A DNA stretch of 64,000 bases from Escherichia coli. GTDB taxonomy: Bacteria; Pseudomonadota; Gammaproteobacteria; Enterobacterales; Enterobacteriaceae. How positions within the stretch are numbered: the stretch's first letter is position 1; every line of letters starts with the position of its first letter. Of this stretch, positions 28,324-45,195 are shown piece by piece. Position numbers and translations under genes: made by a program. The notes under the pieces were generated by a model, which was not told the DNA's origin, ran no database searches, and saw nothing but the letters and a program-made list of their open reading frames with translations. The stretch is taken from NCBI RefSeq assembly GCF_003790525.1, contig NZ_CP033636.1. One strand, 5' to 3'.

Positions 28324-28836
28324 ATGGCAAAGGTCGATCAAACAAAAGCTAATGCTCTATTGCGAGCAGCAAGGACTATGTCGCTTGGGGCAAATAAAAA
28401 TACAATACGAATTTTGTACGGTAATCATGTTGCTGAAAATATCGATTTTGAGCCTGGTGCAAAAACAAAACTCAAAAAAGGTATCCGGGGCTGGAGCAAA
28501 CGCACAGATAACCGCCGAGCTTTTTCTGCTGTTATTGATGTCGCAGTTAACTATTTTGGTTTTGATCCAATAAATCCGGAAGCGAGTTTTCGGCAAATTG
28601 ACTTCAACCGAATAATGAGTGTCCTTCATAATCTGGGATACTTTGTATGCGCACCGGAAGTTAATAAAATAATAGAAATCCTTACTTCTATGAAAGAAAT
28701 TGAAGAACTAGGTGCCTGCGAAAAATGTAAACGCCCATACATTGTGCCAGTGACAAATGATGCTTATTGTCCACGTTGCAGATTATCTTCAACTGCTTCA
28801 GCCATAGAGAGGTATTCTCAAGAAGAATTAGATTAA
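28324..28836 (+). CDS. hypothetical protein with C-terminal Cys4 zinc-ribbon-like motif (170 aa), possible TrhY-like
   Basis: CEKCKRPY...CPRCRL; start 2 nt after upstream stop. Confidence 0.4.
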   Translation: MAKVDQTKANALLRAARTMSLGANKNTIRILYGNHVAENIDFEPGAKTKLKKGIRGWSKRTDNRRAFSAVIDVAVNYFGFDPINPEASFRQIDFNRIMSVLHNLGYFVCAPEVNKIIEILTSMKEIEELGACEKCKRPYIVPVTNDAYCPRCRLSSTASAIERYSQEELD

Positions 28837-29429
28837 ATTTAAAAAAGATATCGCGAAACTTGCCTTGTCTGAATCTAAATATTGACTTAAGTCAAATTCT
28901 GTTGTTTGCTTTACAATCAAATATTAGTTACAACTTAAATATTAACTCTTGACAAGTAAAGATATAATTTGATTTTTCTTTATACAGTCTTTCTTCGTTC
29001 CAAAAAATGTTCACCTTTTTTTCTGTTGAAAACGTAAAACTACTTAGGTTCTCTAAAACCTTCTATGCATGACGACTTCTTAATCGCTTTCAATTAATAT
29101 ATTTTATATTCTTGCCTAAGTTCGCTTCTTTGATCCTTAGCTATTCCTTCTTTGAAATATAGAAACAGCGTTACTGGTGATGATTTTTTTCAGCTCTTAA
29201 TACACCTGTTTTCAAAGCAATATTTGCTTTTAGATATTCGATAAAACCATGTTTTTGTTACACCGGATTTTTCACAATGTGCAAGATGGATGATCTTTCC
29301 ATCACCGAGACTATCTTCTTAGTCAGCACTCCTTTTCCGTCCTTTTCAACATAAAAACGACCATGCTATACGAGCTCTAACCTTTTTTTTGTATGCCATC
29401 ATAACCGCATCAGAAAAGGAGAACGGTCT

Positions 29430-30476
29430 ATGACTCGTATTGCATTAGCGCCTTCAAAGATGGTTTTGCTTATGTCTTTGGTAATTACTGGTGCCCACGC
29501 CAGCCCTGAGCAACCCCTAATAAAAGATACGCCCTTTGTATCAGGCCAGGCTTATAAGAAGGGTTTCTTCTGGTATGACGATCCTGCTAAAAAAAGCGAA
29601 GCTGAAGAAGAAAAGGTTTTGCCACCAACCGGTGCTGCTAGCTCGCCTTCAAAAGAGGAAAAGGTAGATTTAAATTCAAAATGGCTAAAAGAGAATATGC
29701 CTCGACTGTTAACGCAGGCAATGGATAACCCTACCGCAGAAAATCTATCACGTTATTACACGGCGCAAAGGTTAATGCTGGATATCAGTACGCGTTTTTC
29801 TGACAAATCAAAAGATTATTTTCTTAAAAACCCGATGATGTCTGAAAAACGCAGGCAACCAGTGGAAAAGGTGGCACTGGATGCTCACCGCACTGTTGTT
29901 GAAAAAAATCAGCAAACGGTAATGAAAGATATCTTTACTAAGTCAGGTTTATTTTTCTTTTTCCAGAGTACTTGCCAGTTTTGCCACGAAGAGAGCCAAA
30001 TACTTCAATTTATGCAGAACTATTATTCGGTAGATATTCTTCCAATCAGTATGGATGGAAGGCCATTGCATAATGGCCTTTTTCAGGATTTTAACATCCC
30101 CAATGCACAAATTATTGATCAATTTAAAATTCGAGAGGTACCTACAATTTTCCTGGTTTCAAAGGATGGGACATCAGCTCAGCGCATTAGTGAAGGCATG
30201 ATCTCCGCTGATGAATTAAAGAACACTATTATACTTGCCGCGAAGGGCATGAATCTGATCGATGACGCTTCGTTTCAGTCAACTCTAGATATTAAAAGGC
30301 AATATACCATCGGTGATGATGGCGTTATTACCGTTAATAAATCCGAAATGGAATCAGACCCATTCTTACTTCAAAAAATAATGGACCAAAAACTCGAAGG
30401 CTATGACATGCCTACGGCCGATCCGGTCAATTATCTCAATGCTGGCGGCAGTTTTGGAGGCACTTATGCGCAGTAA
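29430..30476 (+). CDS. trhF: TraF/TrbB-family thioredoxin-like conjugal transfer protein with CxxC motif (TrhF-like, 348 aa)
   Basis: Signal peptide; GLFFFFQSTCQFCHEE...VPTIFLV resembles F-plasmid TraF/TrbB thioredoxin fold. Confidence 0.55.
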   Translation: MTRIALAPSKMVLLMSLVITGAHASPEQPLIKDTPFVSGQAYKKGFFWYDDPAKKSEAEEEKVLPPTGAASSPSKEEKVDLNSKWLKENMPRLLTQAMDNPTAENLSRYYTAQRLMLDISTRFSDKSKDYFLKNPMMSEKRRQPVEKVALDAHRTVVEKNQQTVMKDIFTKSGLFFFFQSTCQFCHEESQILQFMQNYYSVDILPISMDGRPLHNGLFQDFNIPNAQIIDQFKIREVPTIFLVSKDGTSAQRISEGMISADELKNTIILAAKGMNLIDDASFQSTLDIKRQYTIGDDGVITVNKSEMESDPFLLQKIMDQKLEGYDMPTADPVNYLNAGGSFGGTYAQ

Positions 30477-31881
30477 TGCCGTTTTCAACTTCAAAAAGTT
30501 ACTTTTGTCTCTTTCTGTTTGTGCTGCAATTTTAGCCCCGACTGCAAATGCAGACAACGCAATGCGTAACATTTTCAATGGCATGATGACGTCTACCAGC
30601 CCGGCCACCTTTTCCACAGCAACCCGTACAGGCATAGTTGGCGGGTCAATGTCTTACCGAACAACAAACGTTAATACCAACCTTGTTTCCATGTCGTTTC
30701 CAAAAGCTTCTGTCGGTTGTAATGGTATTGACGTTTTTCTTGGGTCCTTCAGCATGATCAACGGGGACCAGCTTGTGCAGGTGGCCCGTGGTATTGCCCA
30801 GGGTGCGGCTATCTATGCTTTTAACGTTGCTGTTTCAGCTATTTGTGCTGACTGTGCTGCAACGATTAATGACATCCAAAACAAACTGCAAGCGCTAAAT
30901 AAATTTGCGAAAGATTCATGCAATGCAACTTACTCTTTCCTTTCTGAAAACGTGGGTACGCCAAGCCAGTTCGCTAACTCAGTTAGCTCTGGACCAGCCT
31001 CAATTCTGGGATCGATTAATGGTCTCATTCCTGATTTTGGCTCATCGATGACAAAGTCACCTGAAGCTGTCACTTCTCAGGTTAAAGCAAAGGATCCCGA
31101 AGAGTTCGCTGAAAAATTCAGTGGTAACCTCTTCTATATGTCGTTCATGGATATTGATAAGGGAACAATGAACATCGGAGGGGTAACGGAGTTATCCGGT
31201 TATAAATTGGCAGAACAACTTATGTCTCTCGTGGGTACTGTCATTATCAACTGGGATAGCAAAGGCGAAAAAGCGGGAATGGAAGTCCGCCCGTCTACCA
31301 TGACTGTCACGGATTACATCATGGGGCCACCAGCTGGCGGATCAATTAAAATGCTCAAGTGTTCTCCGGCACCAGATCCATCATCCCCACGAAAGGCTCA
31401 GTGCCTTGTCATGTCAGAAGTTAATGACGGTGGTTTTAAGGGATTGAAGGATACCATTTCTGATCTTCTTTTAAACGTACAGAAAAAAATCATCAACGAC
31501 GTTCGTGTTTCAGATGATGAATTACGCATTATCTCCTATATCGGCATCCCGACCATTATCGACTCTTTGCAAACATTCGAAGCACCGGAAGGGTACGCAT
31601 ACATTCAGGACATAAGCACTATTGCTGCGACGAGCCTCGTAATCAACATGTTGCGCCAGGTTGAGGCCAAAATTTCAACCATGAGCATACCGAGTGAGTC
31701 GCTGTCGGGTAAAAGGGATGATCTCAACCGATTAACAGACAATCTCTCAAAACAGGTTAAAGCCGCCTATGAGCTATCGCACAGCCAGGTCGGTACCAGC
31801 TCGGACGTCATTTCAACCTGGGATAACCGTCGCCTGCAACGGAAGGCTTTCACTGAAAGTATTCGTGGCACACGTAACTGA
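30466..31881 (+). CDS. trhH: F-type TraH-like pilus assembly protein (TrhH-like, about 471 aa)
   Basis: Start reassigned to ATG at 30466 giving signal peptide MRSNAVFNFKKLLLSLSVCAAILAPTANA; overlaps trhF stop; stop TGA is the first 3 nt of the IS629-like element. Confidence 0.55.
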   Translation: MRSNAVFNFKKLLLSLSVCAAILAPTANADNAMRNIFNGMMTSTSPATFSTATRTGIVGGSMSYRTTNVNTNLVSMSFPKASVGCNGIDVFLGSFSMINGDQLVQVARGIAQGAAIYAFNVAVSAICADCAATINDIQNKLQALNKFAKDSCNATYSFLSENVGTPSQFANSVSSGPASILGSINGLIPDFGSSMTKSPEAVTSQVKAKDPEEFAEKFSGNLFYMSFMDIDKGTMNIGGVTELSGYKLAEQLMSLVGTVIINWDSKGEKAGMEVRPSTMTVTDYIMGPPAGGSIKMLKCSPAPDPSSPRKAQCLVMSEVNDGGFKGLKDTISDLLLNVQKKIINDVRVSDDELRIISYIGIPTIIDSLQTFEAPEGYAYIQDISTIAATSLVINMLRQVEAKISTMSIPSESLSGKRDDLNRLTDNLSKQVKAAYELSHSQVGTSSDVISTWDNRRLQRKAFTESIRGTRN

Positions 31882-31932
31882 ACCGCCCCGGGAATCCTGG
31901 AGACTAAACTTCCTGAGAAAGAGGTAAACAGG

Positions 31933-32259
31933 ATGACTAAAAATACTCGTTTTTCCCCCGAAGTCCGTCAACGGGCAGTCCGTATGGTTCTGGAAAGTCA
32001 GGATGAATATGACTCACAGTGGGCGGCAATTTGTTCCATTGCCCCAAAGATTGGCTGTACGCCGGAGACTCTGCGTGTCTGGGTTCGCCAGCATGAGCGG
32101 GATACCGGGGGCGGTGATGGTGGGCTCACCAGCGCTGAACGTCAGCGTCTGAAAGAGCTGGAACGTGAAAATCGTGAACTGCGCCGCAGTAACGATATCC
32201 TTCGCCAGGCTTCCGCTTATTTTGCGAAGGCGGAGTTCGACCGCCTCTGGAAAAAATGA
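31933..32259 (+). CDS. IS629-like transposase OrfA
   Basis: [23 protein letters not shown]... HTH/leucine-zipper OrfA of IS3 family. Confidence 0.8.
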
Positions 32260-33146
32260 TGCCACTGCTGGATAAGCTGCGTGAGCAGTACGGGGTCGGA
32301 CCGGTATGCAGCGAACTGCATATTGCCCCGTCAACGTATTACCATTGTCAGCAACAGCGACATCATCCGGATAAACGCAGTGCCCGTGCGCAGCACGATG
32401 ACTGGCTGAAGAGAGAGATACAGCGCGTATACGATGAAAATCATCAGGTGTACGGTGTGCGTAAAGTCTGGCGTCAGTTGTTACGGGAAGGAATCAGGGT
32501 GGCCAGATGTACAGTGGCGCGCCTCATGGCGGTTATGGGACTTGCCGGTGTTCTCCGGGGTAAAAAGGTCCGTACGACCATCAGCCGGAAAGCCGTTGCC
32601 GCAGGCGACCGCGTAAACCGTCAGTTCGTGGCAGAACGACCTGACCAGCTGTGGGTGGCTGATTTTACTTACGTCAGCACATGGCGGGGCTTCGTCTATG
32701 TGGCGTTCATCATTGATGTGTTTGCCGGATACATCGTGGGGTGGCGGGTCTCATCGTCCATGGAAACGACATTCGTGCTGGATGCACTGGAGCAGGCGTT
32801 ATGGGCCCGTCGACCGTCCGGCACGGTCCATCACAGTGATAAAGGTTCTCAGTATGTATCGCTGGCCTACACACAGCGGCTTAAGGAAGCCGGATTACTG
32901 GCATCAACAGGAAGTACAGGCGACTCGTATGACAACGCGATGGCGGAGAGCATCAATGGTCTTTACAAAGCGGAGGTAATACACCGTAAGAGCTGGAAAA
33001 ACCGTGCAGAAGTGGAACTGGCCACACTCACGTGGGTGGACTGGTATAACAATCGACGATTGCTGGAAAGGCTGGGCCATACTCCTCCGGCAGAAGCAGA
33101 AAAAGCTTATTATGCTTCCATCGGAAACGATGATCTGGCAGCCTGA
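32256..33146 (+). CDS. IS629-like transposase OrfB (DDE integrase core)
   Basis: Overlaps orfA by 4 nt; DDE-type catalytic core sequence. Confidence 0.8.
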
Positions 33147-33202
33147 GTTCACAGATAAAACACTCTCCAGGAAACCCGGGGCGGTTCAAACTGAGGTCTG
33201 AC

Positions 33203-37336: not shown

Positions 37337-38626
37337 ATGGCAAACAAAGTAAAAGATATTAACCATCCATCTATTAATGATAGAGAACGTCGTGTCTTGG
37401 AAGAACTAGGTATATGTAATGGTGCACACTTTAATAATTTGCTTAAAATTGCCCGCTATCGTCTCAATGCTGGTTATTCCCATGCTGAAACTGTACTTTC
37501 TTTACGCTGCACAGGCTCATACATTGAGCGTACCGTAATGCATGCCCCCAAAAATACCCGTAAAAAACTACGTGAACACCTACAAAAATTTGCTCTAGAG
37601 ACAGAGCAGAATAGCGAAACCGTTTATTCTAATTACAATACTCAGCTCCGTGTAATTCGAGAAAAAAAACAAAAAGAACATTTGATGGCCAAGCGTAAGG
37701 AGTACATTCGCGTTCGGCTAGAATCTTGTAAAACAAGGGGGGAGCGGTTGATGGCGTTCGGTCTAATTGACACTATCGATCCCGAATATATACAGGAACT
37801 GGAAGACCATCTGGCTAAGGTTAGTCATCGTAAGATGTTGGAGGATAATGACCGAAAGGTAAAAGAACGCAATAGACTGTTGAGTGAAATGAAAAAAAAT
37901 TCAGCCCGTCTCACCGAACGAATAATCCTGTCGGAAAAAGAGGAACCAGATGAAGAAGCCTCTCTTCCAATACTGGTACGTAGATATATTCCCGGCGGAC
38001 GTGCCGCAGAGTTCGCTATTTATGCACGTTCAAACGCTACATTACCTCCACTAGAGATCATTGAGGGTTTTCTAGGGTATCCAGTTGGTGGCCGCGAAAG
38101 ATCGCAGGAAGATCAGCCTAAATCTCCACCGGCCGCGATTATGGTCGCTATGAAGACTGATGGTATAGAAGAAAAGGAGCTTCAGCCGAATATTCCTGAT
38201 GAAACTACTGTACCGGGTAAGCGTAAGGGTAGTAAGACAACTGTCGAGACACGACCAGATCAGGCCTCATTTGCAGAAGCCGTCCGCAACAACTGTTATG
38301 ACCAATGTGTGATTACAGGCTCTAGACTGCGCCAGCGCACTGAGGCTGCTCATCTGATGGAGCATCGTAACGGAGGAGTAGACCATTATACAAATGGGTT
38401 GCTCTTACGCCATGATATACACGATCTTTTCGACGCAAACATGATTGCCATTCATCCGGTGACGTTGGAGGTTAACATTCTCGCTGAAGCTTTGGCGGTA
38501 GATCATGATTTAGCGGCATATCAAGGAGAGTTTATTAAGCCGCTGCGTAAACCCATCAATACTGAATTCCTAAAGCACCGTTGGCAGGTTTTTCAGCACC
38601 GGAACCAAACTGAGCAGCAAGCTTAA
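37337..38626 (+). CDS. HNH endonuclease domain protein with coiled-coil-like N-terminal region (429 aa)
   Basis: C-terminal CYDQCVITG...AAHLMEHRNGGVDHYTNGLLLRHDIHDLFD HNH-like motif; monocistronic with own upstream TACAAT -10-like hexamer. Confidence 0.5.
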   Translation: MANKVKDINHPSINDRERRVLEELGICNGAHFNNLLKIARYRLNAGYSHAETVLSLRCTGSYIERTVMHAPKNTRKKLREHLQKFALETEQNSETVYSNYNTQLRVIREKKQKEHLMAKRKEYIRVRLESCKTRGERLMAFGLIDTIDPEYIQELEDHLAKVSHRKMLEDNDRKVKERNRLLSEMKKNSARLTERIILSEKEEPDEEASLPILVRRYIPGGRAAEFAIYARSNATLPPLEIIEGFLGYPVGGRERSQEDQPKSPPAAIMVAMKTDGIEEKELQPNIPDETTVPGKRKGSKTTVETRPDQASFAEAVRNNCYDQCVITGSRLRQRTEAAHLMEHRNGGVDHYTNGLLLRHDIHDLFDANMIAIHPVTLEVNILAEALAVDHDLAAYQGEFIKPLRKPINTEFLKHRWQVFQHRNQTEQQA

Positions 38627-38733
38627 GAGACCGGCATGTTTTCTTCCAACTGTGCAATGCTTTGACCCGGGGCAGAAATGGAGAAGCATAGAACTGATAA
38701 TGCGGGCATGCTCTCCGTAAAAGTTACTTTAAT

Positions 38734-39300
38734 TCAGGAAGCCCAACGTTTCATAAGCAGATGATACCTGGTGTTAAGAGCTGCAAGATCAGATTCGGTG
38801 AGGCCGGTGTAATAATTGGTTTTTTGCAAATGTGGATAACCGACCGGGAATAATGATTCGTCGTCATCAAGGCAGATAAATGCTTTAACTCGATGTGAAA
38901 ATACAAAGTCCTCACACTCAGCAGCCCGCACACCTGACTGATTAGGTTTTAAATATACCGAATCGGTAGCACCTATGACTTTGTCTCTATAAGGTAGCCG
39001 GAAAAGAGATTTCAGGTAAGTTATACTGGCACATTCACGCCACGAACTGGAGATGACAATCACCATGGAAGGGCATTTATCCAGTAATTTTTCCACCAAT
39101 GGCATTCGCTCAAAGGTTTCATTTTTGCACCTGTGACAAACCCCATCGAAATCTAAGAAAAGCACGACATGCGAATCAGGGAGAGGGCCCCATAAACCAG
39201 CTGTTGTTTCTTCAGGAACACATACTTCTTCATGAAGAGGGCTTTTCTGCATCAAGAAAGAAGAGAGAATCTTAAATATATTTCTTGCAGAAAAAGACAA
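38734..39300 (-). CDS. HAD-like hydrolase-fold protein (188 aa)
   Basis: VVLFLDFDGVCH matches HAD motif I (DxDG[TV]); downstream of transglycosylase gene. Confidence 0.4.
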   Translation of the reverse strand: MSFSARNIFKILSSFLMQKSPLHEEVCVPEETTAGLWGPLPDSHVVLFLDFDGVCHRCKNETFERMPLVEKLLDKCPSMVIVISSSWRECASITYLKSLFRLPYRDKVIGATDSVYLKPNQSGVRAAECEDFVFSHRVKAFICLDDDESLFPVGYPHLQKTNYYTGLTESDLAALNTRYHLLMKRWAS

Positions 39301-39382
39301 TTTATTACCCCTGAGTCTATGCGAATTTTTTGCGGGGGGGTACCCAAGCTACTCGATGATCTTCTGTAATATCAGGTTGAAT

Positions 39383-39922
39383 TTATTTAACAACAGGAGT
39401 CGGGTTTTGCTCCGGGACATTTTTAGCTATATGGCCATTGTATCGAGGAGGTTGTTGGGTCCATTGATAAAGCTCACCCATCCCGTTACGCTGCTGGATC
39501 CGGCGATTGTACTTTACCATGAAGTTAAATATGTACTTTGCACGTACCTTTGGGGTTTTGCTGTTGTAATCTGCAATCCCTTCAAACACATTGCCCTTGC
39601 GATCAACAATTTTTCTGTAGAGCCACCATGTTCCAACCCAGAAACTAGCGCAAGCATCGTAAGCCAGAACCCGCCACGTTACAGTCGGGAAATGCTTTTT
39701 TATTTCAGGCAGATTGGATGAGTTGATCTGCATCGGGCCAATATCATAAGTGCCGTTAGTATTCCTGCTGAAAGTACCAACCTTACCGCCTTCATTGTCA
39801 AACAACGTAAAAACCAGTTCGGCATCAATTCCGAAGAAGCGGGCGGCATCCGTAATGCACTGAGTGTAAATCTCATCAGGAACGGGAATAGGTTTCACAT
39901 CATCTGCTGGTGGTGTAAACAC
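39383..39922 (-). CDS. lytic transglycosylase (SLT domain), conjugation-associated peptidoglycan hydrolase
   Basis: YDIGPMQINSSN motif typical of SLT-domain proteins; GTG start with GGAG RBS. Confidence 0.6.
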   Translation of the reverse strand: MFTPPADDVKPIPVPDEIYTQCITDAARFFGIDAELVFTLFDNEGGKVGTFSRNTNGTYDIGPMQINSSNLPEIKKHFPTVTWRVLAYDACASFWVGTWWLYRKIVDRKGNVFEGIADYNSKTPKVRAKYIFNFMVKYNRRIQQRNGMGELYQWTQQPPRYNGHIAKNVPEQNPTPVVK

Positions 39923-40069
39923 AACGATTTCTCCACTGAATCTACGTTTTATCTATTCTCCCATATATCTATCGACTTTCTTTCGGCTTTACCCGTTGAT
40001 TTAAGCGTTTAAGCAAAATTCTGGAATTTTTGGGCGTGATAATATTAGTGCTCGATTCAAGGAGCATAA

Positions 40070-40819
40070 ATGAAAAAAATTATTAAGGCATCGGTATTAC
40101 TTCTTTCATTAAGTACCGCCTTCACGATGAATGCCGAGCCGGTTAATACAATGGTACTGCCAGATGCAGCCCGGGATAAGCTCAAAGCCATTGGGCTTTC
40201 AATCGAGCACGTCGAACCCTCGCCAGTAAAAGATATTTTTACGGTGATTTCCAGGGAGGGGGTAAGTTACGTGAGCAAAGACGGAGATTACATTTTTACC
40301 GGAAGCTTATTCCACGTGAAAGGTAAAGATGTGGTAAACACCACTGAGCAGGCCATTTTAATGGGCGTCCGGGAATTCGCATCCAAAACAAAATCCATCG
40401 ACTACAAATCACCAAACGAAAAATACCGGCTTGCTATCTTTACCGATATAACCTGTGGATACTGCCAAAAACTGCATCATGATCTGAAGTCTTATCTTGA
40501 TGCCGGTATTTCGATTAAGTTTCTTGCATTCCCACGTGCAGGACTGAACTCGGTAGTAGCCGGGAACATGGCCAAAATCTGGTGTTCAGCAAAGCCAAAC
40601 GAAGCTCTGGATGCAGCGATGAATCCGGTTTCAACTATCCCGGAAGGACGTCCTGATGAGGCTTGCTTAAACATTATCAAATCGCATTTCCAGGTGGCCT
40701 CAACAATCCCGCTGCAAGGTACTCCTACCATGGTGACACTAAGCGGCAAACCGCAGTTATTTACGGGGTGGCTGAGCCCGGAAAACCTGGTGACCCAAAT
40801 GGGCGCTGCGCAAAAGTAA
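40070..40819 (+). CDS. dsbC: DsbC-like periplasmic thiol:disulfide interchange protein (249 aa)
   Basis: Signal peptide; active site CGYC in thioredoxin-like context; stop codon embedded in AAAAGTAACTTTT motif. Confidence 0.65.
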   Translation: MKKIIKASVLLLSLSTAFTMNAEPVNTMVLPDAARDKLKAIGLSIEHVEPSPVKDIFTVISREGVSYVSKDGDYIFTGSLFHVKGKDVVNTTEQAILMGVREFASKTKSIDYKSPNEKYRLAIFTDITCGYCQKLHHDLKSYLDAGISIKFLAFPRAGLNSVVAGNMAKIWCSAKPNEALDAAMNPVSTIPEGRPDEACLNIIKSHFQVASTIPLQGTPTMVTLSGKPQLFTGWLSPENLVTQMGAAQK

Positions 40820-40843
40820 CTTTTCCGACTGTAAGAGGTGTGT

Positions 40844-41236
40844 ATGAAATCTACTTTACTGAGTACGTTAATGCTGGTTGCTGTAGGTGTACAGCCCGTT
40901 TTCGCTGCACAATGTCAGTACGGAGCCTGTGGAACGGAAAACGATCCAGGAATCGTATTTCTGATGTCATCGGTACAAATGGATCAAGGTGAACAACTAA
41001 AGGAACTCTCTGGTGTTGCGACCACAGGTGACACCATCTCTAAAAAGATGGAAAGCTACCTGGGAAATAAAAAGCTCAAGGTAAACACCGACAGTACCCG
41101 CAAGGGGCCGGGTAATACCACCATCAGGCCTACAGATGAGCTCGCCCCAACGAGGCAACTAAAAGTTATCCGGCCCGAACTGGTAAAAAATCCCGATTCG
41201 CAGCTCGTGGTAGCTTTCAATGAGCGCCTGGCCTGA
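40844..41236 (+). CDS. small secreted protein (about 130 aa)
   Basis: Start moved to ATG with AGAGGTG RBS; signal peptide MKSTLLSTLMLVAVGVQPVFA. Confidence 0.4.
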   Translation: MKSTLLSTLMLVAVGVQPVFAAQCQYGACGTENDPGIVFLMSSVQMDQGEQLKELSGVATTGDTISKKMESYLGNKKLKVNTDSTRKGPGNTTIRPTDELAPTRQLKVIRPELVKNPDSQLVVAFNERLA

Positions 41237-41269
41237 TTTATTGACTGAGAGCGTCCAGAAGGAAAAAAG

Positions 41270-41692
41270 ATGTCGATACTCAGTAACTTCGTCATCAGGG
41301 CAACGGGGATACCTGACAAAAAGTATCTCCGGGATCCCGTAATAAAACGTTGTTATGAACGTCTGAGTCGTAGGGTGCCTGCTCTAATGACGGGTTGGCT
41401 TCTGTGCATTCTGGGTTCAGGGTATGTCAGTATGGCACTGGAACAGCCTGATAGCACTGTGTTACTCAGTCTGCTGCTGTTGTATGTTATGTCAGGCATT
41501 TTACTGATGCAGTTCCAGTATATGTATTCAGAGCGAAGCATAGGCTACAAGTTCTACCTGGAAGTGCTTATGAATGCAGCCGCCAGTACTCAACATAAAG
41601 AACAGTTACAGTATCTAATCATTAATAAGCCCAATTCCATCACGATGGGCGATCTTTACCGACTTTATGATTTTAATGGGGGAGGGCGATAG
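41270..41692 (+). CDS. hypothetical membrane protein (140 aa)
   Basis: ORF track; two hydrophobic helices. Confidence 0.4.
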   Translation: MSILSNFVIRATGIPDKKYLRDPVIKRCYERLSRRVPALMTGWLLCILGSGYVSMALEQPDSTVLLSLLLLYVMSGILLMQFQYMYSERSIGYKFYLEVLMNAAASTQHKEQLQYLIINKPNSITMGDLYRLYDFNGGGR

Positions 41693-41751
41693 CCACGTTT
41701 ATGTGCGTGTCCAAAAGTCACTTTTGAACATTCTCTTCCCGCCGTCTGCTT

Positions 41752-42363
41752 TCAGTTCCAGGGGATCACTGCAACATAATTTCCGGAACGCAGCGGCGCA
41801 TCAAATTTATCAGTAAAGGCGTCGATCATTGCTGAATAAGCAATGCTGTCTGACGGCACAGGTGCATTGCTTTGCATACTCACTTTCAGAACCTGCTTTG
41901 CTCCTTTCGCTGACGGGTATACCTCGACATCCAGCTGTCGCATATAGTGCATCTGCGACATCGTCTCAGTGCCTATTACCCCATCGACCGGCCTGTAGTC
42001 ATAGTCAGTATGCGATTCGCCATGCTTGTCAGTTCTCGTTGTCTTTTTATCTACAACGTAGCCTGTCACCCCAGTAAGAAGCTGCTCGCTATACTGCATG
42101 TTCTCCTGTGAGCTGCTCATTCGGAACCTGAGCACATAATCTGGCTGGTGAGTGGAAATAATGACTCCTTTTTTTGCTAATCCATCAGCAAAACGGCCTG
42201 AAAACATTCTGGACTGAATACTTTCGTCCGGAGGGACTATCTGAAACCTTTTATTTGTAACAGGACGAGGCATTAGATCGTACGCATCTACCTGGTTTGC
42301 GAAATGATATCCACAACCACTCAAAAGCATTGCGGTTGTGAGTATAAAGCCCTGCCTAATCAT
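41752..42363 (-). CDS. lipoprotein (203 aa)
   Basis: Signal peptide with lipobox LLSGC. Confidence 0.45.
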   Translation of the reverse strand: MIRQGFILTTAMLLSGCGYHFANQVDAYDLMPRPVTNKRFQIVPPDESIQSRMFSGRFADGLAKKGVIISTHQPDYVLRFRMSSSQENMQYSEQLLTGVTGYVVDKKTTRTDKHGESHTDYDYRPVDGVIGTETMSQMHYMRQLDVEVYPSAKGAKQVLKVSMQSNAPVPSDSIAYSAMIDAFTDKFDAPLRSGNYVAVIPWN

Positions 42364-42469
42364 CCTTTAATCTCCAAAAAGCATTGTTTCACGAATAATT
42401 CCGATTTACCGGGCCAGTATAATCCATCGCAGGTTAATAACTAACAGGCTGAAAAGCATAAAGGTAGCT

Positions 42470-43279
42470 ATGTCTAAAGAATTTTATTTAAAACCGATGG
42501 CCACGATTTTAATTTCTGCGGTAATTGCTACCGCTGCCTCGGCGTTAATCGCGGCAACTTATTTTAAACCGAAGGTGCTCAGTGAGGAAGAAATTGGCAA
42601 AATTGCCGCTACTTACCTGGTAAAAAATCCCCATTATTTAGTGGAAGCAGGTAAGGCGCTGGAAAATCAGAACGTAAGTGCCTCAGTGGAACGAATAATT
42701 CCATATGCGCCAGCTCTGCTGGATACCAAGGAGACGCCAAACATCGGCCCGGATGACGCCGACGTCGCGGTAATCGAGTTCTTCGACTATCAGTGTATTT
42801 ACTGCATGCGGGTTACACCTGTTGTTGAATCGGTAATGAATCAGAGCAAAGATGTAAAATTCTTCTTTAAAGAATTCCCGATTTTTGCCGGTTCAAAACC
42901 TGTATCTGCCATGGGGGCCGCTACGGGTCTGCACGTCTATCAGAATTTCGGTGCTGAAGCCTATCGTAAATACCACAACAACCTGATGGCTGTGGCTCAT
43001 ACCTTCATGACCTCTCAACGCAAATTCGAACTCAGCGACTTTAATACTGTGGTGGATAAGTCAGGGTTTAACAGCACGTTTTCTGACAGGGAAAAAAACC
43101 GATATGAAAACGTGATCTCCGGCAACATGCAGCTGGGCGAAGCGCTTGGGATCACCGGCACACCCGGCTTCATCATTATGAATATGAAAAAGCCGAATGC
43201 GGCGACTACCACATTTATCCCCGGGGCTATGGACGCAGCAACTTTGCAGGGCGCAATCGAAAAAGCTCGCGGGGCCTAA
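42470..43279 (+). CDS. DsbA-like thioredoxin-fold oxidoreductase with CxxC (269 aa)
   Basis: N-terminal hydrophobic segment; FFDYQCIYCMRV active-site context; stop embedded in AAAGTTACTTT motif. Confidence 0.55.
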   Translation: MSKEFYLKPMATILISAVIATAASALIAATYFKPKVLSEEEIGKIAATYLVKNPHYLVEAGKALENQNVSASVERIIPYAPALLDTKETPNIGPDDADVAVIEFFDYQCIYCMRVTPVVESVMNQSKDVKFFFKEFPIFAGSKPVSAMGAATGLHVYQNFGAEAYRKYHNNLMAVAHTFMTSQRKFELSDFNTVVDKSGFNSTFSDREKNRYENVISGNMQLGEALGITGTPGFIIMNMKKPNAATTTFIPGAMDAATLQGAIEKARGA

Positions 43280-43324
43280 AGTTACTTTCACTTTTGATGA
43301 GTACGGCCATGCCGGTCATGGCCG

Positions 43325-44584
43325 CTACGCTTTTACAACGAGTAATTCATCCCAGCGGGTCGTATATCTCGGTGATAGCATGGCCTGTTTCATACGAAAA
43401 TCCTGTTGAATGCCTTCCCCCAGCAAAAACAGAGCTCCGCGCTTTTCTTTATTGAACCGGTCCATAACTTTCATCAGTGCCTGACTGCCAGGCCTGGCCG
43501 GGCGCTCATCAAACAGGCTGAGTTGCTCTGTGCCGTCAGTCATAGCGGAGAGCATTACCCCAGCTTTCGCATACGCTATCCCGGGTTTGTAAATGCGGTT
43601 CAGGATGGTCATGGCTGCATCAACCAGATCGCGGGTGTCCTGTGTAGCGGTAAGCGGCTCGATACCACAATTGCTGTAGCGGTTTTCACCTTGCGCATAA
43701 TTGCTGCTCTGAATGAAGACTGTGATTTGACGGGTCCACGAGCCATCCTTGCGCAGCTGCTCTGCCGCCCGGGCGGTAAAAAATGAAACTGCCTCATGTA
43801 GCTTGCCTATCTCATTAAGGCGCTGACCAAAACTTCTGGAAACGATAATCTGTTGCCGGACAGGAGGGGATTCATGCAGCCGGAAACATGGTTCGCCATG
43901 CAGTTCCCGCCAGGTACGCTCGATTTCAACGCCAAAGCTTTTACGTAAAAAGCGAACGTCGCTATTATAAAAATCACCGGCAGTGATGATCCCGAAAGCC
44001 GACAGGCGTTCACTGATCTTTTGACCAATACCCCATATTTCTCTGGTACTGATAAGGCCCAGGAGCTTCCTGATCCTGGCCTGATCAGTCAAAACTACAA
44101 CCCCGCCTGTAGCTGCCCATCGTTTGCTCGCATAGGTGCATAATTTAGCCAGGGTTTTGGTGCTTGAACACCCCACACCACAGGTAAGGGACAGATTATG
44201 AAGAAGTGTACTTCTGATCAACCGGCCGTAATCTTCATAATCTATTATCTTGTTCATGTTTTTCAATAACATGAAATTTTCATCTATGCTATATCGACTC
44301 GATTGAGGCGCGAAGCTTTCCAGCGTTTCATGGAAGCGATTTGAGTAGTCTTCATACAAAGTAAAGTTAGAGCTCCGGACTTCGATCTGGTGTTGCTGAA
44401 TCAAATCCCTGCACTTAAAAATTGGGGTCCCACGCTTAATACCAACGCTTTTAGCCAGTTTATTCATTGCAATGACGGACGAATCGTTATTGCTGGCTAT
44501 GATGAGCGGCTTTTTTGCCAGCTTGGGATCCATCGCACACTCAAATGCCGCATAGGCCCCGTTAATATCAACGTGCATGTACAT
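43325..44584 (-). CDS. umuC: Y-family DNA polymerase subunit (UmuC/MucB-like, 419 aa)
   Basis: N-terminal DINGAYAAFE and SIDENF motifs correspond to UmuC catalytic Asp/Glu region; overlaps umuD-like stop. Confidence 0.6.
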   Translation of the reverse strand: MYMHVDINGAYAAFECAMDPKLAKKPLIIASNNDSSVIAMNKLAKSVGIKRGTPIFKCRDLIQQHQIEVRSSNFTLYEDYSNRFHETLESFAPQSSRYSIDENFMLLKNMNKIIDYEDYGRLIRSTLLHNLSLTCGVGCSSTKTLAKLCTYASKRWAATGGVVVLTDQARIRKLLGLISTREIWGIGQKISERLSAFGIITAGDFYNSDVRFLRKSFGVEIERTWRELHGEPCFRLHESPPVRQQIIVSRSFGQRLNEIGKLHEAVSFFTARAAEQLRKDGSWTRQITVFIQSSNYAQGENRYSNCGIEPLTATQDTRDLVDAAMTILNRIYKPGIAYAKAGVMLSAMTDGTEQLSLFDERPARPGSQALMKVMDRFNKEKRGALFLLGEGIQQDFRMKQAMLSPRYTTRWDELLVVKA

Positions 44585-45002
44585 GGCTAAACTGATTCAG
44601 TGCAAAGGTGACGACGCCCCATATCTCAAGGGATTCGGGATTTACACGTATCGGCTTATAGGCTGGATTAGAAGGCATCAAAAGCAGCTCAGGATACGTG
44701 TGTAAGATCTTTACCGTGAACTCTCCATCCACCAGCGCAACGACGATAGAGCCGTGTCGTGCCGTTAAAGACCGATCCACAACCAGAATAGCGCCATCAT
44801 TGATACCGGCATTGATCATACTGAGGCCCGCCGCCCTGACAAAGAAGGTTGAGGGGCGGTTACGGACTACATATTCATGCAAATTTAATTCATTATCTTC
44901 ATGCCCGGCGCACGGACTCATCACTCCACAGCTCAGTAAATCACTGAAAAAAGGTGCCATTTCGTAAGGCTTGTTGCTAATGTGCTCAAGGATAACAGAC
45001 AT
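44568..45002 (-). CDS. umuD: UmuD/MucA-like S24 peptidase-fold mutagenesis protein (144 aa)
   Basis: AAGLSMINAGI (Ser nucleophile context) and later Lys; LexA box upstream. Confidence 0.6.
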   Translation of the reverse strand: MSVILEHISNKPYEMAPFFSDLLSCGVMSPCAGHEDNELNLHEYVVRNRPSTFFVRAAGLSMINAGINDGAILVVDRSLTARHGSIVVALVDGEFTVKILHTYPELLLMPSNPAYKPIRVNPESLEIWGVVTFALNQFSHVHAR

Positions 45003-45023
45003 AGCTACACTCGAATTCTCATA

Positions 45024-45039
45024 CTGTATGTATAAACAG
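45024..45039. promoter_or_regulatory. LexA (SOS) box CTGTATGTATAAACAG upstream of umuD-like gene
   Basis: Perfect CTGT-N8-ACAG, 22 bp upstream of the start codon. Confidence 0.7.
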
Positions 45040-45195
45040 TATTGCGAGTTACAGAGAAAAGATCAAATCTCTCCGGTAACGCTATCGAGCCTGACGAAAA
45101 ATTAAGCTTTGTCACAAACACCAAAAACCATCTTTTACCGATAATGGCGAGCTGGCCTACGAAGAAGGTATACAAGCTAGGATGAAAGGATTCTG

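Follow-up and report, generated by a model that had tools for sequence, protein, structure and literature searches.

What are two periplasmic thiol-disulfide enzymes doing beside the transfer genes of an IncHI2 plasmid? The question is raised by positions 40070-43279 of a 64,000-nucleotide stretch of Escherichia coli contig NZ_CP033636.1, the whole of which was analysed here and is called the window. The initial annotation of this locus described two disulfide oxidoreductases, one with a CGYC and the other with a CIYC motif, on either side of secreted, membrane and lipoprotein genes, and all of these open reading frames (ORFs) are indeed present where it had placed them. In our estimate the probability is about 0.72 that they form part of a conserved block of the IncHI backbone that provides the conjugative type IV secretion system with envelope-folding helpers. 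The present analysis established how the genes are built, to which families and folds their products belong, and that they are conserved, syntenic and under purifying selection; from the literature on IncHI1 orthologues come their co-regulation under conditions of transfer and the poorer transfer seen in dsbC-null hosts when the plasmid dsbC is deleted.

The first gene of the pair (40070-40819, plus strand) encodes a DsbC-type periplasmic disulfide isomerase of 249 aa, the orthologue of dsbC (R0131) of the IncHI1 plasmid R27. It contains CGYC at residues 129-132 and a second cysteine pair, C172/C199, and on inspection its N-terminus, MKKIIKASVLLLSLSTAFTMNA/EP, looks like a Sec signal peptide. 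Pfam assigned the DsbC_N dimerisation domain (PF10411) to residues 32-89, with an E value of 7.4e-14 and 51.6 bits against a cut-off of 25, as well as a Thioredoxin_2 domain (E 4e-16). Comparison with solved structures returned 4npb (E 1e-43) and E. coli DsbC (1eej, E 8e-37). The CGYC motif aligned with the active sites of 4npb and 4i5q and the LQGTP segment with their GTP loop, while C172 and C199 aligned with the corresponding cysteines, which form a structural disulfide. Pfam and structural matches alike bear out the earlier label "DsbC-like". The score against the NCBIfam DsbC equivalog NF008129, however, was 178.3 bits and lies below the cut-off of 215, so that the protein belongs to the family and is not the housekeeping DsbC orthologue.

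The second gene (42470-43279, plus strand), orthologous to R0135 of R27, encodes a 269-aa thiol-disulfide oxidoreductase of the "DsbA family" with CIYC at residues 109-112. Its previous description as DsbA-like is correct at the level of the Pfam family, since DSBA (PF01323) was recognised with an E value of 6.5e-20 and 72.2 bits against a cut-off of 25.6, together with Thioredoxin_4, but the closest relatives are BcfH and ScsC and not classical DsbA. In a phmmer search of the PDB, the best match was Salmonella BcfH (7jve, E 1.5e-35), followed by the ScsC-type entries 4xvw, 6mhh, 7rgv, 6nen and 4gxz (E 1.9e-14 to 4.4e-10), a range that also held Francisella DsbA1 (9edl), Wolbachia DsbA2 (6eez) and 3gyk. 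An AlphaFold2 monomer model (predicted local distance difference test score, 88) placed a hydrophobic helix at residues 7-31 and further helices at 39-52 and 54-83 ahead of the catalytic domain, in which helices spanning 144-225 are inserted between the beta-alpha-beta and beta-beta-alpha halves. When this model was submitted to Foldseek, ranks 1-19 were occupied entirely by BcfH and ScsC structures, with BcfH first (E 5e-19); the alignments to full-length BcfH chains comprised 261-268 columns at template modelling scores of 0.60-0.72, depending on chain and normalisation, and classical DsbA structures were not among the top matches. In 29 relatives, the sequence E-F-F-D-Y-x-C-x-x-C was invariant or nearly so and the G230-T231-P232 loop invariant, while the two residues inside the CxxC vary, being IY in IncHI2 and HF in IncHI1 and Klebsiella. 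Sequence and model together point to an enzyme of the BcfH/ScsC type rather than a classical monomeric DsbA oxidase. The catalytic domain is predicted to be periplasmic whether the N-terminal segment acts as a cleaved signal or as an anchor, and the modelled helical stalk probably makes the protein a trimer. BcfH itself is described in PMC11653150, which cites Subedi et al. (2021), as a trimer that assembles through the helices at its N-terminus and acts as a thiol oxidase as well as an isomerase. The initial annotation had regarded the two plasmid enzymes as paralogues, which did not withstand comparison: BLASTP aligned about 60 residues of them at 24-26% identity (E 0.03), and the thioredoxin fold alone is common to both.

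Between the two enzymes lie three genes whose products matched no Pfam or NCBIfam family, even at an E value of 10. The first (40844-41236, plus strand; R0132 orthologue) encodes a small secreted protein of 130 aa if read from ATG 40844, which is preceded by AAGAGG, or of 132 aa from GTG 40838. Its signal peptide is followed by AQCQYGAC, so that a C-x4-C pair stands directly after the predicted cleavage site, and IncHI-type homologues show little or no variation in the segments AAQCQ[YF]G[AS]C, KVNTDSTRKGP and RPELV. The second (41270-41692, plus strand; R0133 orthologue) encodes a small inner-membrane protein of 140 aa, in which one segment (residues 64-82) passed the hydropathy cut-off and a second, at about 41-57, was recognised by reading of the sequence and not by that cut-off. 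Its C-terminus, GDLYRLYDFN(G/R)GGR, is conserved, and it is 45% identical to the IncHI1 protein across the full 140 aa. A role as a DsbB- or DsbD-like redox partner was considered for this protein and rejected, because a single cysteine is conserved between IncHI1 and IncHI2 and there is no conserved pair. The third gene (41752-42363, minus strand; R0134 orthologue) encodes a 203-aa lipoprotein with the lipobox LLSGC, the cysteine of which is invariant in 14 homologues; homologues down to 38% identity retain the 203-aa length. The predicted fold resembles PelC, TraT, LptE and DUF4136 and includes an unusually long beta-hairpin, from which a part in surface exclusion or outer-membrane docking is conceivable. 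For these small genes the first gene calls are better than the database annotation: the Prokaryotic Genome Annotation Pipeline gives the R0133-type gene 140 aa in IncHI1 and only 86 aa in IncHI2 records, and it lists the R0134-type gene as a "lipoprotein" of 203 aa in IncHI1 and as 115 aa in IncHI2 RefSeq entries.

How firmly this arrangement belongs to the plasmid can be judged from its distribution. The window represents IncHI2 plasmid backbone, and a 5.8-kb query from it (39300-45100) was matched in 1011 plasmid records, at least 80% of the query being covered in 927 of them. It is 100% identical to many IncHI2 plasmids, for example pSTM6-275 (NZ_CP019647; MOBH relaxase, MPF_F mating-pair system), and the carriers of the identical block include Salmonella, E. 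coli, Klebsiella and Enterobacter. In NZ_CP019647 the dsb block stands directly downstream of the Tra1 genes trhF-trhH-trhG. It corresponds gene for gene to R0129-R0137 of R27 (HAD, bfpH/trbN-like SLT, dsbC, two small genes, lipoprotein, dsbA, mucB and mucA), where R0135 is annotated as "dsbA, outer membrane protein", and the order adjoining trhG is identical in IncHI1 (HAD-SLT-DsbC-small-small-lipoprotein-DsbA-mucBA). With the IncHI1 protein at the R0131 position taken from pZ1323SSL0010-2, protein identities between IncHI1 and IncHI2 are 90% for SLT, 84% for DsbC, 58% for R0132, 45% for R0133, 69% for R0134 and 75% for the DsbA-like enzyme. The proportion of nonsynonymous differences (pN) in the block genes is 0.06-0.37, which is low against a synonymous proportion (pS) of 0.68-0.78, where sites are saturated; all of these genes are therefore real protein-coding genes under purifying selection, including the R0132-type gene, with a pN/pS of about 0.4.

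We then asked what connects the block with conjugation. Besides its position next to Tra1 and beside a TrbN-like lytic transglycosylase, the R27 orthologues respond to the transfer programme. In microarrays of a transfer-derepressed R27 htdA mutant at 25 C, expression rose 19.5-fold for R0129, 20.6-fold for R0130, 13-fold for dsbC, 8.1-fold for R0132, 10.3-fold for R0133 and 6-fold each for R0134 and dsbA (R0135), but only 1.5-fold for the adjacent mucB. Furthermore, bfpH (R0130) and dsbA (R0135) of R27 were induced under every conjugation-promoting condition, including 25 C. As summarised in PMC10838148 (2024), loss of dsbC from R27 reduces transfer about 10^4-fold, in dsbC-null hosts only (Elton et al., 2005), deletion of trbB from F reduces it about 10-fold, likewise only in dsbC-null hosts, and Rts1 requires Orf206, a distant relative of R0135, to transfer efficiently in wild-type hosts too; a phenotype is also given there for the dsbC homologue of SXT. 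The idea of dedicated disulfide management, put forward when the locus was first annotated, keeps its core in view of the Tra1 adjacency and the R27 data, although the paralogy, the DsbA type and the number of proteins involved had to be corrected. Essentially, plasmid-borne disulfide management for the transfer apparatus has already been published for IncHI1 DsbC, and because R27 dsbC was already tied to transfer in dsbC-null hosts, the interpretation of the first enzyme is not new.

Several observations weigh against reading the block as a source of folding helpers for transfer. ScsC relatives work in copper tolerance, which offers an alternative role for the 269-aa protein. The ScsC_N stalk domain, recorded by Pfam for many of its relatives, remained below threshold in the plasmid protein itself (residues 40-67, E 0.011, 15.8 bits against a cut-off of 25.8). 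The loss of htdA derepresses 139 of the 181 expressed R27 genes, and co-regulation with transfer is therefore weaker, unspecific evidence. Besides, the confinement of the dsbC phenotype to dsbC-null hosts indicates that R27 dsbC is redundant in wild-type E. coli, and the function of R0135 is stated as unknown in PMC10838148.

If the block does serve the secretion system, its action may be envisaged as follows, the trimeric state, substrates, redox partners and the roles of the three middle genes being our proposals. The DsbC-type protein would be exported, dimerise via its N-terminal domain and presumably be kept reduced by host DsbD, and it would reshuffle wrong disulfides in cysteine-rich exported transfer proteins, for which TrhN (32 cysteines), TrhU (16) and TrhH (7) are candidates; RSP, with 8, is a further plausible client. 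The second enzyme would be exported or tethered by its hydrophobic N-terminus and probably trimerise through the helical stalk, and at its CIYC/Thr-Pro site the disulfides of these or related substrates are probably both formed and isomerised. The two enzymes, along with TrhF and HtdT, would make transfer less dependent on the Dsb capacity of the host.

The last-named proteins also bear on the number of such enzymes. The initial annotation counted at least three thioredoxin-fold proteins, with TrhF as the third. TrhF (29430-30476, plus strand) is indeed a TraF-like thioredoxin-fold protein with CQFC at residues 182-185 (Pfam TraF, E 2.6e-51; TIGR02740, 328.7 bits against a cut-off of 232). The tally, however, rises to four exported CxxC thioredoxin-fold proteins for this plasmid type (TrhF, HtdT, DsbC and the BcfH-like enzyme), as htdT has to be added to the three of the window; it lies in Tra2, outside the window (NZ_CP019647, 7234-7986), encodes CDGC and is annotated "protein-disulfide isomerase HtdT". 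The R27 thioredoxin-fold genes trhF, dsbC and htdT have reportedly been studied together, and DsbC and HtdT, not TrhF, are said to have acted as isomerases. As a separate observation, a 170-aa gene labelled trhF at 28558-29070 of NZ_CP019647 does not encode the TraF-like protein, and we suspect that it is a mislabelled TrhP.

Beyond IncHI, homologues of the BcfH-like enzyme were found on 3232 PLSDB plasmids, 2463 of them typed as conjugative, and DsbC-like homologues on 2910. In IncF-type plasmids (Yersinia pestis, Enterobacter, Klebsiella oxytoca), a lone BcfH-like gene follows traI, traX or finO at the far end of the tra operon. The enzyme is thus a widespread, uncharacterised plasmid member of the BcfH/ScsC class. 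A version of the whole module is present on the K. pneumoniae plasmid pKP9 (NZ_MZ690484; IncFIB/FII, MOBF), where a DsbC-like gene (47% identity), a 103-aa gene, a 113-aa gene and a DsbA-like gene (43%) follow one another, with a HAD gene nearby and no lipoprotein gene. BLAST detected no similarity between the 103-aa protein and the IncHI 130-aa protein, yet in both of them a signal peptide is followed directly by C-x4-C (SVCGPVAC and AQCQYGAC), and both have KVxTD and, at the C-terminus, a motif flanked by prolines; no similarity could be detected between the membrane proteins of the two plasmids either. The order thus recurs in pKP9 with a small C-x4-C gene in between, and the two enzymes are therefore carried as a linked pair accompanied by a small CX4C protein. 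We also noted that pKP9 contains an IncHI-like segment (189-204 kb plus 1-6 kb) with genes for DUF1173, thermonuclease, PLD, H-NS and HAD proteins and the dsbC-small-small-dsbA series.

These comparisons allow two other accounts of the enzymes to be weighed. They could mainly serve the host or the plasmid cargo, either in copper tolerance as ScsC does or in folding disulfide-dependent resistance proteins and adhesins such as the Ig-like proteins. ScsC-family structures are the next-best matches of the 269-aa protein after BcfH, pco/sil islands for copper and silver are found on IncHI2 plasmids, as are three Ig-like-domain genes and RSP (8 cysteines), BcfH itself is encoded in a fimbrial operon, and R27 dsbC is dispensable for transfer in wild-type hosts. 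Nevertheless, we think this account unlikely, as the dsb block is set in conserved backbone beside Tra1, is found in IncHI1 as well and is about 30 kb away from the metal islands; lone BcfH-like homologues sit inside F-type tra operons, transfer phenotypes have been published for R27 dsbC and the R0135-like gene of Rts1, and the Ig-like proteins carry merely 2-3 cysteines each.

Somewhat less probable still, in our view, is that, instead of being independent helpers with adjacent genes, DsbC, the CX4C protein, the membrane protein and the BcfH-like enzyme constitute one self-contained unit in which the CX4C protein is substrate, cofactor or specificity adaptor. This would account for the gene order being conserved between IncHI and pKP9, which uses a different, MOBF transfer system, and for the retention of C-x4-C at the mature N-terminus despite near-zero overall similarity, and the short intergenic gaps do suggest a dsbC-orf130-orf140 operon. 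It fits poorly with the dissimilar membrane proteins of the two plasmids and the missing cysteine pair in the IncHI one, with the lack of the lipoprotein from the Klebsiella version, and with the many plasmids on which the BcfH-like gene occurs alone.

The ends of the two enzyme genes drew attention to a further feature. As the initial annotation had pointed out, both terminate inside copies of a palindrome, the dsbC stop codon being TAA 40817-40819 and that of the dsbA-like gene TAA 43277-43279. It had written this palindrome as AAAGTWACTTT, which occurs exactly 12 times in the window, compared with an expectation of 0.01 from shuffled sequences; the central base proved to be free, however, so that the motif is better given as AAAGTNACTTT, usually extended to AAAAGTNACTTTT. 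With a free central base there are 15 copies, as the three one-mismatch copies all differ at that base only. They start at 1066, 9505, 9631, 15457, 20359, 22089, 23527, 26950, 27435, 27876, 30495, 38720, 40813, 41714 and 43278; the 20-kb resistance region is free of them, all being located before 43288. The whole of pSTM6-275 contains 49 copies, compared with 11 of the next commonest 5-N-5 palindrome, and 20 of the 49 copy centres fall outside a generous ORF set, where 7.1 would be expected (P about 9e-6). Several copies mark gene junctions: dsbC and one ORF in the htdA operon have the central TNA as their stop codon; others are found in the first codons of htdO, trhU and a thermonuclease gene, 100 nt upstream of htdT, and twice in the divergent mobI/trhR region. 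Copies also precede the H, R, AC and probably Z operons.

Within the dsb block, a copy occurs at the 3' end of every transcription unit. The one at 38720-38730 (AAAGTTACTTT) begins 4 nt past the stop codon of the HAD-domain gene and is found at the same position in IncHI1 between unrelated flanks. At 40813-40823 (AAAGTAACTTT) dsbC ends on the central TAA, and the ribosome-binding site of the following gene comes about 10 nt after this copy; the IncHI1 counterpart is AAAGTGACTTT with a TGA stop. The copy at 41714-41724 (AAAGTCACTTT) lies between the convergent stops of the 140-aa and lipoprotein genes and corresponds to a degenerate copy, AAAGTTAATTT, in IncHI1. The last, at 43278-43288 (AAAGTTACTTT), overlaps the dsbA-like stop codon with its first two bases and separates this gene from the convergent umuC; IncHI1 has an identical AAAGTTACTTT after its dsbA-like gene, with a diverged downstream flank. 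All four copies thus hold their place in IncHI1, two exactly, one centred on TGA and one degenerate. On pKP9, 6 copies, mostly intergenic, were counted in the approximately 21-kb IncHI-like segment and 2 in the other 73 kb examined; since that segment holds copies, the motif travels with IncHI-like genes and not with the IncHI transfer system.

What might read this palindrome? An intrinsic terminator was considered and dropped, because the loop of the hairpin would be 1 nt, and a terminator scan gave nothing above background at the motif sites. As no hairpin is possible, a dimeric DNA-binding protein would be the natural reader. Likeness to Tus/Ter was also rejected, the motif being palindromic and having only GTAACT in common with it. 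Identity with a TrhR/TrhY site is unsupported, in that no copy is present in the 594 bp upstream of trhF although this operon depends on TrhR/TrhY, which argues against a simple identification. A search of the open-access literature returned no paper containing the motif sequence and unrelated papers only. As our best guess, we tentatively propose that AAAGTNACTTT is the operator of a plasmid-wide DNA-binding regulator, perhaps the DNA-contacting part of the HtdA/TrhR/TrhY circuit, which we hold to be possible but short of an even chance; such a regulator would be comparable with the KorB operator network of IncP plasmids and would couple the transfer programme to the Dsb module and to a large part of the backbone. 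That the motif is a functionless by-product of composition or codon usage seems very improbable. About half of the copies are inside ORFs and can encode K-V-T-F/L or K-L-L, which speaks for such an origin, but it is difficult to reconcile with the excess over shuffles and over the runner-up palindrome, with the enrichment outside ORFs and with the scarcity of copies in acquired resistance and metal-tolerance DNA, from which the motif is almost missing. Moreover, among the four dsb-block copies kept in IncHI1, three have both half-sites intact and the fourth has a mismatch in one half-site, while flanks and synonymous sites are randomised. With regard to promoters, a sigma-70 consensus scan of 38600-43500 returned 0 promoter-like sites against 7.9 expected in shuffles, which would fit activator-dependent or H-NS-silenced promoters; by eye, a TATAAT precedes the dsbA-like start codon by 45 nt and a TG-n-TAATAT lies upstream of dsbC.

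The surroundings of the block contain further features. The TrbN/BfpH-like lytic transglycosylase gene (39383-39922, minus strand; R0130 orthologue; Pfam SLT, NCBIfam TrbN, E 7e-23) is divergent to dsbC and provides the context for an envelope-remodelling block. A 429-aa protein with an HNH motif is encoded at 37337-38626 (plus strand), between trhG and the HAD gene, in IncHI2 and not at the corresponding place in IncHI1. The 8-nt gap between trhH and trhG has received a 1.3-kb IS1203-like element of the IS3 family (31878-33188), 97.6% identical to copies in pSTM6-275, which has none at this site; the insertion could be polar on trhG and hence on transfer of the plasmid from which the window is derived.

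IncHI2 plasmids are major vehicles for mcr, carbapenemase and metal-resistance genes. Dsb enzymes encoded on them could keep transfer robust where the disulfide machinery of the host is limiting, which is relevant to proposals of blocking DsbA or DsbC against resistance or conjugation. With the role of DsbC already established for IncHI1, the BcfH/ScsC-type enzyme represents a real but modest gap. The finding is correct and largely ordinary, and the palindrome is the more unusual part; should it prove to be an operator, it would offer a way into the global regulation of IncHI plasmids, which is poorly understood.

Among known systems, R27 DsbC (R0131) comes closest to the first enzyme, being 84% identical and equal in length, position and neighbours, although the IncHI1 copy has CGFC in place of CGYC. 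E. coli DsbC (1EEJ) has the two-domain architecture, CGYC, the Thr-Pro loop and the structural disulfide in common with the IncHI2 protein, but is chromosomal, whereas the latter is plasmid-borne and has an R27 orthologue derepressed along with the transfer genes. DsbP of IncA/C plasmids (4ML1) matched the plasmid DsbC-like protein with an E value of 3.7e-12 and is domain-swapped, F TrbB lacks the dimerisation domain, and HtdT is 24% identical. TrbB and TraF of F, HtdT and TrhF of R27, DsbP and Orf206 of Rts1 are all thioredoxin-fold proteins on MPF_F-type conjugative elements, with different sub-architectures and no close homologue among them; isomerase activity is reported in the literature for R27 DsbC, acting on the R27 transfer system, and for F TrbB. 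The 269-aa enzyme resembles BcfH and ScsC in the modelled helical N-terminal extension ahead of a DsbA-like domain and in the G-T-P loop. Identity is about 30%, BcfH has CSWC instead of CIYC, and the hydrophobic N-terminal segment of the plasmid enzyme is longer than in these relatives and may be a membrane anchor. The relatives belong to fimbrial or copper-tolerance operons, BcfH being encoded within the fimbrial bcf operon and not in a transfer operon, whereas the plasmid gene adjoins the transfer region. Finally, classical E. coli DsbA and the plasmid enzyme share the Pfam DSBA domain and the insertion of helices into a thioredoxin fold, but differ in the active site (CPHC versus CIYC), in the residue before the loop proline (Val versus Thr) and in the helical N-terminal extension of about 60 residues, which is present in the plasmid enzyme only.

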